This document shows, one piece after another, positions 12,001-15,000 of a stretch of 64,000 nt of DNA. How positions within the stretch are numbered: position 1 is the first letter of the stretch; each line of letters opens with the position of its first letter. Origin of the DNA: a virus (Duplodnaviria > Heunggongvirae > Uroviricota > Caudoviricetes); IMG/VR virus record IMGVR_UViG_2718218100_000001; one strand, written 5' to 3'. Position numbers: made by a program.

Positions 12001-15000
12001 TCCCGGGAGGTAAACGGGCATTTCAGCTCAAGGCCATTGCCGTCACTGCATAAACCATCGGGAGAGCAGGCGGTGCGCATACTTTCGTCGCGATAGATGA
12101 TCGGGGATTCAGTAACATTCACGCCGGAAGTAAACTCAAACAGGACTCTGGCGTCGTTCTCGTACTGTTTTCCCCAGGCCAGCGCCTTAGCGTTAACTTC
12201 CGGAGCCACACCGGTGCAAACCTCGGCAAGCAGGGTGTGGAAGTAGGACATTTTCATGTCAGGCCATTTCTTTCCGGAGCGGGGTTTTGCTATCACATTG
12301 TGAACTTCTGAAGCGGTGATGACGCCGAGCCGTAATTTGTGCCACGCATCATCCCCCTGTTCGACAGCTCTCACGTCGATCCCGGTACGCTGCAGGATAA
12401 TGTCCGGTGTCATGCAGCCACCTTCTGTTCAGAGGCTTTCTGTTTCAGGAATCCAAGAGCTTTCACTGCTTCGGCCTGTGTCAGTTCTGACGATGCGCGA
12501 ATGTCGCGGCGAAATATCTGGGAACAGAGCGGCAATAAGTCGTCATCCCATGTTTTATCCAGGGCAATCAGCAGAGTGTTAATCTCCTGCATGGTTTCAT
12601 CGTTAACCGGAGTGATGTCGCGTTCCGGCTGACGTTCTGCAGTGTATGCGGTATTTTCGACAATGCGCTCGGCTTCATCCTTGTCATAGATACCAGCAAA
12701 TCCGAAGGCCAGACGGGCACACTGAATCATGGCTTTATGCCGTAACATCCGTTTGGGATGCGACTGCCACGGCCCCGTGATTTCTCTGCCTTCGCGGGTT
12801 TTGAATGGTTCGCGGCGGCATTCATCCATCCACTCGGTAACGCAGATCGGATGATTGCGGTCCTTGCGGTAAATCCGGCATGTACAGGATTCATTGTCCT
12901 GCTCAAAGTCCATGCCATCAAACTGCTGGTTTTCATTGATGATGCGGGACCAGCCATCAACGCCCACCACCGGAACGATGCCGTTCTGCTTATCAGGGAA
13001 GGCGTAAATTTCTTTCGTCCACGGATTAAGGCCGTACTGGTTGGCGACGATCAGCAATGCGATGAACTGCGCATCGCTGGCATCACCTTTAAATGCCGTC
13101 TGGCGAAGAGTGGTGATCAGTTCCTGTGGGTCGACAGAATCCATGCCGACACGTTCAGCCAGCTTCCCTGCCAGCGTTGCGAGTGCTGTACTCATCCGTT
13201 TTATACCTCTGAATCAATATCAACCTGGTGGTGAGCAATGGTTTCAACCATGTACCGGATGTGTTCTGCCATGCGCTCCTGAAACTCAACATCGTCATCA
13301 AACGCACGGGTAATGGCTTTTTTGCTGGCCCCGTGGCGTTGCAAATGATCGATGCATAGCGATTCAAACAGGTGCTGGGGCAGGCCTTTTTCCATGTCGT
13401 CTGCCAGTTCTGCCTCTTTCTCTTCACGGGCGATCTGCTGGTAGTGACGCGCCCAGCTCTGAGCCTCAAGACGATCCTGAATGTAATAAGCGTTCATGGC
13501 TGAACTCCTGAAAATGGCTGTGAAAATATCGCCCGCGAAATGCCAGGCTGATTAGGAAAACAGGAAATGGGGTTAGTGAATGCTTTTGCTTGATCTCAGT
13601 TTCAGCATTAATATCCATTTTTTATAAGCGTCGACGGCTTCACGAAACATCTTTTCATCGCCAATAAAAGTGGCGATAGTGAATTTAGTCTGGATAGCCA
13701 TAAGTGTTTGATCCATTTTTTGGGACTCCTGGCTGATTAAGTATGTCGATAAGGCGTTTCCATCCGTCACGTAATTTACGGGTGATTCGTTCAAGTAAAG
13801 ATTCGGAAGGGCAGCCAGCAACAGGCCACCCTGCAATGGCATATTGCATGGTGTGCTCCTTATTTATACATAACGAAAAACGCCTCGAGTGAAGCGTTAT
13901 TGGTATGCGGTAACGCAGCGCTCAGGCGGCTTTGATAGTCATATCATCTGAATCAAATATTCCTGATGTATCGATATCGGTAATTCTTATTCCTTCGCTA
14001 CCATCCATTGGAGGCCATCCTTCCTGACCATTTCCATCATTCCAGTCGAACTCACACACAACACCATATGCATTTAAGTCGCTTGAAATTGCTATAAGCA
14101 GAGCATGTTGCGCCAGCATGATTAATACAGCATTTAATACAGAGCCGTGTTTATTGAGTCGGTGTTCAGAGTCTGACCAGAAATTATTAATCTGGTGAAG
14201 TTTTTCCTCTGTCATTACGTCATGGTCGACTTCAATTTCTATTGATGCTTTCCAGTCGTAATCAATGATGTATTTTTTGATGTTTGACATCTGTTCATAT
14301 CCTCACAGATAAAAAATCGCCCTCACATTGGAGGGCAAAGAAGATTTCCAATAATCAGAACAAGTCGGCTCCTGTTTAGTTACGAGCGACATTGCTCCGT
14401 GTATTCACTCGTTGGAATGAATACACAGTGCTTATTCGTACTAATAAAATACCCAATTTTCTGTTTCTTGGTTGTGTCCAAAGTTATATTCAATATCTGG
14501 TGTTGATGTATCAATATTCTTCATACCATCAACAAGAGTTGATACAACAGCCAAATCTTGTTTGATTCTCATTAAATGGTATTTCTTCCGGCGCAATAAA
14601 CTTTCAATGGCAAGTTTCTTCGTTGGGAATGCAAAAGATCTTTCTGCATTTTTTGCTACTTTCTTAATTGCATATCTATTTCTCCTTTGTTTCCATTCAT
14701 GTAACCACTGATTTGGTGCTGGTTTAAAATTAACAATCCAATGCGCAGGAACCAACCATGCATAATGCTCTGTCTGATGAAAAGCTATATATTGAAGTGC
14801 GAATATTTTTATCCCATCTTCTTCAACTGTCGCCTGGAATCTCCAGAAAACAGGCATTCCATCATGTTCAGTTTCTGATTCAGGAAAAGGTACGCTCCAT
14901 GATTTTGTCATATCTCACCTCAAATAAGTGGTTTGCTGCCTAATTTCATTTTCTGGCGACCAACACAAGTCACCTCGCCGTCAGTTGTTTTGATTTCCGG

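Follow-up and report, generated by a model that had tools for sequence, protein, structure and literature searches.

A conserved 156-aa gene of Shiga toxin phages is an exchangeable cassette of the lambdoid early-left operon and encodes a predicted fold without a solved relative

The window analyzed here is a stretch of 64,000 nucleotides (nt) from a virus of the Caudoviricetes (IMG/VR record IMGVR_UViG_2718218100_000001), which corresponds to a 933W-like Shiga toxin (Stx) phage. Its early-left (pL) operon contains an open reading frame (ORF) for 156 amino acids (aa) between the antiterminator gene N and ea10 (Table 1). The ORF starts with ATG, is preceded by a Shine-Dalgarno site (GAGGTGAGAT-ATG), and follows the stop codon of N after a gap of 58 nt. 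Past ea10, the gene order continues with cIII, kil, gam, bet, and exo. An earlier reading of this DNA (the original prediction) had placed an AT-rich ORF of 156 aa on the pL strand with N and ea10 as its flanks. The coordinates it gave were exact, and both flanks were confirmed by Pfam matches to N_peptide upstream and DUF2528 downstream. The AT-richness was likewise borne out: with 35.5% (26% at third codon positions), the GC content of the ORF lies below that of N (49.5%) and of the window as a whole (48.6%). The 701 bases around the ORF are 100% identical to the Stx1 phage AU5Stx1 and 99.9% identical to 933W, and identity with 933W is 99.3% over positions 13600-15594.

The 156-aa ORF is a real gene under purifying selection. 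When the local 701 bases were shuffled 2000 times, an open frame of at least 156 codons appeared in only 6 cases. The ratio of nonsynonymous to synonymous substitution rates (dN/dS) was 0.04-0.16 among close alleles and 0.07-0.09 for the homologues from Pectobacterium and Brenneria. Full-length homologues were found down to 55% identity, and the frame is unbroken in 592 E. coli genomes. One might still suppose a chance frame or a decaying remnant, given that our literature searches turned up no experimental evidence of expression. This explanation is effectively refuted by the rarity of frames of such length, the low dN/dS values, and the intact frames, and also by 87 profile matches among 1.8 billion representatives and by an AlphaFold2 (AF2) model with a mean predicted local distance difference test score (pLDDT) of 94.9.

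Comparison with related phages showed that the lambdoid early-left operon carries the gene as a mobile, gene-exact cassette. Homology between the window and phage 2851 (blastn) covered positions 13600-14432 and began again from 14909, so that the replaced segment equals the ORF almost to the base. In phage 2851, the slot is occupied by an 83-aa ORF that is unrelated to the 156-aa ORF. Homology to a lambda-like phage ended at 14444 and restarted at 14970, with ral, a small ORF, and sieB in the intervening slot of that phage. The homology breakpoints are located at the start codon of the 156-aa ORF and within approximately 8 nt of its stop codon. A linker of 35 base pairs (bp) that includes the Shine-Dalgarno site and the start codon was also found 5′ of unrelated cassettes, with one copy 5′ of the 83-aa ORF in phage 2851 (locus L015, 1423-1457) and a second in phage phi296 (locus L031, 2134-2168). 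It looks like a joint for homologous recombination that would drive the exchange of cassettes.

The strand and position of the gene, its conserved flanks with exchanged cargo, and its deviant GC content all place it in the class of pL accessory cassettes of the N-cIII hotspot. The original prediction had regarded the slot as a hotspot for cargo, and indeed the same flanks enclose ral and sieB or the 83-aa ORF in relatives, with gene-exact joints. It had also presented the ORF as the single occupant of the ral/sieB slot of lambda. The slot was correctly named, but ral is not an alternative to the gene, as the two lie side by side in phi296. The order in this phage (L031 2236-2971) is a 90-aa N of a different type, two small ORFs, ral, and a gene similar to gp45, the HK97 copy of the 156-aa ORF. 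The start codon of this gp45-like gene is apparently TTG. Kinship of the 156-aa ORF to other occupants of the slot was considered and rejected, since no relation was found to the 83-aa ORF of phage 2851, to P22 gp17, or to Lar. Exchange was also seen for the adjacent ea10 module (13909-14310): HK97 does not possess it, and PA28 and H-19B carry a P22 gp17-like gene in its place. The joints of this module fall directly after the T-run of a terminator at 14311-14316.

The same gene is known as L0079 in 933W, gp45 in HK97, and vb_24B_11c in phi24B, and it is hypothetical in every record; H-19B carries it without annotation. Copies from Stx phages and HK97 share 99-100% identity. In total, 88 phage records (tblastn) and 597 of 5426 complete E. 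coli genomes (approximately 11%; megablast) contained the gene, the latter with up to four copies per genome. Carriers include the main Stx phage types 933W, phi24B, H-19B, BP-4795, Min27, and Stx2-86 in addition to HK97. Close homologues (55-99% identity) were restricted to Enterobacterales. Plasmid matches consisted only of phage-sized or misfiled records, all of them non-mobilisable, and none was located in the context of a conjugative leading region. Full-text literature searches for L0079, HK97 gp45, and vb_24B_11c found no study, and the sequence is absent from the accessory-gene screen PMC12373910. The original prediction had assigned the ORF to no recognized family. This stands with respect to Pfam, NCBIfam, PADLOC, and PDB sequences, none of which gave a match, but the protein does belong to PHROG 1636 (E-value 1.3e-111, positions 1-156 of 156), a group without known function.

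The gene product is predicted to be a soluble alpha/beta protein of approximately 18 kDa. The AF2 model reached the pLDDT given above with an alignment of 85 sequences, compared with 62.9 when 20 close sequences were used. Its elements comprise, in order, two hairpin strands (residues 19-30 and 33-46), a third strand (50-55), two short helices, a fourth strand (83-86), a helix of 33 residues (98-130), and an ordered C-terminal tail. A structure-based search, as suggested in the original prediction, was carried out with Foldseek against the PDB and yielded a best E-value of 1.1; the modeled fold is thus one without a solved relative. No membrane segment was detected (maximum hydropathy over 19 residues 0.56). 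The protein is aromatic-rich, with seven tryptophans and no cysteine, and has an isoelectric point (pI) of 9.07 and an overall net charge of +3, which is distributed unevenly: -5 for residues 1-60, +13 for residues 61-120, and -5 for residues 121-156. A pI above 7.5 was found for 80 of the 85 family members. Basic residues occur family-wide at R24, K75, R76, K83, K84, K87, R91/92, K98, R108, and K109. The resulting basic belt maps to strand 4 and the first half of the long helix, and the acidic N- and C-terminal parts flank it.

Conservation of at least 90% was reached only at G33, T47, K87, and A101. The 933W clade has Q in place of the E46 of the family, which speaks against a catalytic role. 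Overall, the conservation pattern fits a binding protein, and the protein is unlikely to be an enzyme. Using hhalign, the motif K-[KR]-[VI]-x-K...R-F-A-F-x-T-K-x-x-A and the following helix could be aligned to strands 2-3 and the helix of AP2/integrase-type domains, a local resemblance only. The idea of an AP2-like motif was not supported by hhalign, and the three-strand-plus-helix domain was matched neither by profile nor by fold.

The 87 matches of the profile search were mostly 130-160 aa in length with 19-27% identity to the query, members of the wider family typically having about 140-150 aa. All 68 family members tested matched PHROG 1636, and 58 of them matched PHROG 13631. By sequence, the 156-aa protein belongs directly to PHROG 1636 and to the distant PHROGs 13631, 25384, and 28215; as these are without functional annotation, the membership explains nothing about mechanism. 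Neither the 68 diverse members, searched singly, nor the family profiles, including a C-terminal sub-profile, gave an informative match in Pfam, NCBIfam, PADLOC, or PDB sequences. Two apparent domain fusions, P0066 (940 aa) and P0080 (444 aa), were rejected as false positives caused by repeats or low complexity.

Among phages, gp069 of the Pantoea phage LIET2 is a firm member of the family (hhalign probability 99.8%). Further members were found in a Salmonella siphovirus, where the gene opens an operon, as well as in a Vibrio phage and a Klebsiella phage. Fold relatives in the BFVD, all of them uncharacterized phage proteins, include proteins of phiEa2809 and the N4-like phiAxp-3, both of which we take to be lytic phages. 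LIET2 (locus L012, 3025-3480 and 4866-5297) encodes a second protein of interest, gp064 (143 aa), which is similar to NW77_134 of phiEa2809. This protein is possibly what the BFVD search returned as a fold-level relative, but hhalign detected no sequence relation to the family.

Genomic neighborhoods were compared for eight loci, those of P0019 and of seven distant members, which were located through exact matches of the protein. All eight are arrays of small phage-type genes. An integrase gene is present in six of them, two of which also have a Peptidase_S24 repressor, and a seventh contains a LexA-type repressor. In most cases, the family gene is co-directional with the integrase and recombination genes. 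Neighboring genes encode RecT, YqaJ, SSB, RdgC, HNH proteins, and orphan DNA methyltransferases. A homologue of the restriction alleviation protein Lar is encoded two genes from the family gene in L022, and L018, L019, L024, L028, and phage LIET2 have a gene for a DNA methyltransferase no more than a few kb away. No conserved partner emerged, as the up- and downstream neighbors in the eight distant loci are mutually unrelated, including two neighbors of 269 aa each.

With recombination genes always present in these operons (exo, bet, and gam in the window; RecT, YqaJ, SSB, RdgC, or RecE in relatives), the protein might be an accessory factor of recombination or replication, e.g. a single-strand binder or a mediator working with Red-, RecT-, or Erf-type systems. 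Aromatic and basic residues are also abundant in the sheet, as is typical of single-strand binders. We nevertheless regard such a function as unlikely. The gene is not tied to a single recombinase type (Bet/Exo in 933W, Erf in HK97 and H-19B), and its product did not match OB, PC4/Whirly, NinB, or any other mediator in fold searches. Moreover, this function would leave unexplained why the gene is located before the first terminator and away from the recombination genes.

In Pectobacterium, Brenneria, and the metagenomic prophage L024, the family gene stands immediately before xis/int or AlpA/int. Together with the proximity of N and cIII in the window, this arrangement would suit a regulator of phage development that binds DNA or RNA and adjusts early transcription or translation, the choice between lysis and lysogeny, or excision, and the conserved basic belt, the long helix, and the strong purifying selection could be accounted for in the same way. 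Against this, the gene is dispensable and patchy, being absent from close relatives that have N, cIII, and the flanks in common with the window. In addition, the gene occurs alongside at least two types of N, and neither a helix-turn-helix nor another regulator fold was found in Pfam or by fold searches. A regulatory role is therefore rather improbable, albeit one worth keeping in mind.

To place the gene in its transcriptional context, we considered promoter and terminator signals of the operon (Table 1). A consensus match was called the candidate pL promoter because it is positioned upstream of nutL, whose location was transferred from 933W (L001 6220-6286). The promoter scan revealed no promoter-like site between pL and the ORF, and the spacer between N and the ORF showed no terminator-like fold (z -0.4). 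The first intrinsic-terminator-like element past pL is situated downstream of the ORF, and its HK97 counterpart, identified by coordinate mapping, follows gene 45 and bears the annotation 'putative terminator'. Between the ORF and this element lies a hairpin (14394-14431). As homology to phage 2851 ends at 14432, the hairpin forms part of the flank that is also present in phages without the ORF. Possible functions of the hairpin are cleavage by RNase III or stabilization of the 3′ end. Rfam gave a single match, the known cIII thermoregulator (Lambda_thermo, 13804-13862, minus strand, 88.5 bits), which overlaps the start of cIII; no family was placed within or next to the ORF.

Table 1. Coordinates of the 156-aa ORF and of features in its surroundings within the window
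Feature	Position	Strand	Evidence
156-aa ORF (933W L0079, HK97 gp45, phi24B vb_24B_11c; PHROG 1636)	14441..14911	-	ORF list, homology, dN/dS, AF2
N, antiterminator of H-19B/933W type; directly upstream, predicted common transcript	14970..15353	-	Pfam N_peptide (E 2.1e-15); 933W annotation
ea10 (DUF2528), downstream neighbor, itself swappable	13922..14290	-	Pfam DUF2528 (E 1.5e-46)
35-bp linker with Shine-Dalgarno site and start codon	14909..14943	-	blastn; also 5′ of unrelated cassettes
Candidate pL promoter, TTGCCA-17-TAAAGT	15602..15630	-	Promoter scan; consensus match only
nutL	15519..15585	-	Transferred from 933W annotation
Hairpin with perfect 14-bp core and no U-run; begins 10 nt past the stop codon, at the module joint	14394..14431	-	RNA fold, -21.7 kcal/mol, z -6.8
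First intrinsic-terminator-like element past pL, 8-bp GC-rich stem and T6	14311..14338	-	Terminator scan; fold -13.4 kcal/mol

Co-transcription with N before the first intrinsic terminator would make the ORF an immediate-early gene, and the lack of a promoter of its own in the interval from pL to the ORF suggests silence under repression. Judging from these sequence signals, synthesis of the product probably begins within the first minutes of infection or induction, and the gene would be silent in the repressed lysogen.

The predicted silence weighs against the possibility of a prophage-encoded defence or superinfection exclusion protein of the SieB, Rex, or Stk kind, which would be made in the lysogen and block or abort other phages. 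Such a function is suggested by the presence of sieB in the same slot of lambda-like relatives, by the exclusion kinase gene stk nearby in 933W-type phages, and by the fact that AT-rich prophage cassettes are often cargo of this type. We consider it very unlikely, given that (i) no promoter-like site from pL to the ORF was found that would allow expression under repression; (ii) a membrane segment is lacking, as are signatures of a toxin, nuclease, or NTPase; (iii) PADLOC models match neither the gene nor the 68 family members; (iv) homologues are found within co-directional arrays of early genes, not beside the repressor on a transcript of their own; and (v) fold relatives occur in phages that are presumably lytic. 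SieB of lambda and P22 itself shares the slot with the 156-aa ORF in lambda-like relatives, but differs in several respects. In the lambda-like phage PhiR11_1, sieB is annotated on the strand opposite to N, whereas the 156-aa ORF is on the pL strand and has neither a promoter-like site of its own, nor a hydrophobic segment, nor a Pfam match.

We favor a reading in which the ORF would be transcribed with N from pL, ahead of the first terminator, and in which its product would bind nucleic acid, or another conserved polyanionic target, in the service of the phage. Its role would be counter-defence or host takeover, like that of the operon neighbors Ral, Gam, Kil, and CIII. We put forward this composite of a phage-serving, early, nucleic-acid-binding protein as a tentative proposal with a fair share of doubt, as we infer the nucleic-acid binding, the immediate-early timing, and the biological role alike. 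Regarding the target, the conserved basic and aromatic belt in combination with strong purifying selection suggests a conserved polyanion, most simply nucleic acid, and a dN/dS below 0.2 likewise points to a conserved target. Counter-defence or takeover appears the most likely role because of the company of the gene, i.e. ral, Lar, methyltransferases, gam, kil, and cIII. A function serving the phage rather than exclusion by the lysogen is indicated by the position in the operon, the lack of an own promoter and of a membrane segment, the early-gene context of the homologues, and the possible presence in lytic phages. A more far-reaching version is that the protein represents a new class of counter-defence or takeover factor, made immediate-early with N and belonging to a superfamily of new fold, which neutralizes a host immune system or a core process via nucleic acid. 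HK97 gp45 or 933W L0079 would then be the founding member of the superfamily, and the factor would be present in most Stx phages of the 933W type. This version is possible, but on the whole doubtful.

A number of points weigh against the favored proposal. The searches described above linked the protein to no nucleic-acid-binding, anti-defence, or takeover protein, whether by homology or by fold, and nucleic-acid binding is poorly predicted by basic charge and aromatic residues. The contiguity of the basic surface was deduced from sequence and secondary structure alone. As methyltransferases and Ral or Lar are common in early-left operons, their association with the gene could be background, and no conserved partner gene was found in the loci compared. 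Strong purifying selection is not usual for an inhibitor engaged in an arms race. Finally, the timing is built on consensus scans, to which Rho-dependent termination is invisible.

A function in defence or anti-defence, as implied by the original prediction, is possible, although no known family of either kind gave a match. A published AntiDefenseFinder run on phi296, phi315, phi345, and phi419 reported only a methyltransferase, Ral, and Gam (PMC12502783). All four phages carry the 156-aa gene according to our tblastn search. With PADLOC 2.0, the best match had an E-value of 0.02 and was a partial match to Cas1_II, and the 68 family members showed no consistent match.

Among known systems, lambda Ral and its Rac counterpart Lar share most features with the 156-aa gene. 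They too are encoded by small accessory genes of the pL operon in the N-to-cIII slot, which are non-essential and patchy among lambdoid phages. The 156-aa gene is even found close to them, adjoining ral in phi296 and standing two genes from the Lar homologue in L022. In contrast to Ral and Lar, its product has no Pfam match and gave a probability of 0.3% in an hhalign comparison with the Lar homologue, and the gene co-occurs with ral. Ral is also considerably shorter (about 66 aa vs 156 aa). DNA mimics of the T7 Ocr and ArdA type offer a possible analogy in timing, as their genes are the first or among the earliest to be expressed once the genome enters the cell. Such mimics are strongly acidic, whereas the 156-aa protein has a basic pI and a central belt of +13, and no fold match was found.

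The gene itself was already present in databases, and it is well known that swappable accessory cassettes occupy the lambdoid slot between N and cIII. New here are the gene-exact structure of the cassette, the wider family, and the high-confidence fold without a solved relative; co-expression with N is likely and would also be new. If made together with N before antitermination, the protein would be among the first two that these phages produce. Should a role in counter-defence or takeover prove true, it would bear on the spread of Stx phages between E. coli strains and add a new fold to the anti-defence repertoire. If there is no phenotype, the gene would merely be another lambdoid accessory cassette. 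HK97 and lambda-type genetics make it experimentally tractable and directly testable.

Some differences from 933W were noted in the nearby immunity region. Identity with 933W stops at 15594, just past nutL, and the immunity region of the window is a different one (cI at 16243-16947). The stk kinase gene and the three small ORFs found between cI and N in 933W are missing from it. A terminator-like hairpin with eight pairs, six of them GC, is located on the minus strand at 15831-15852, approximately 390 nt past the stop codon of cI, and may be the counterpart of tM as annotated in 933W.

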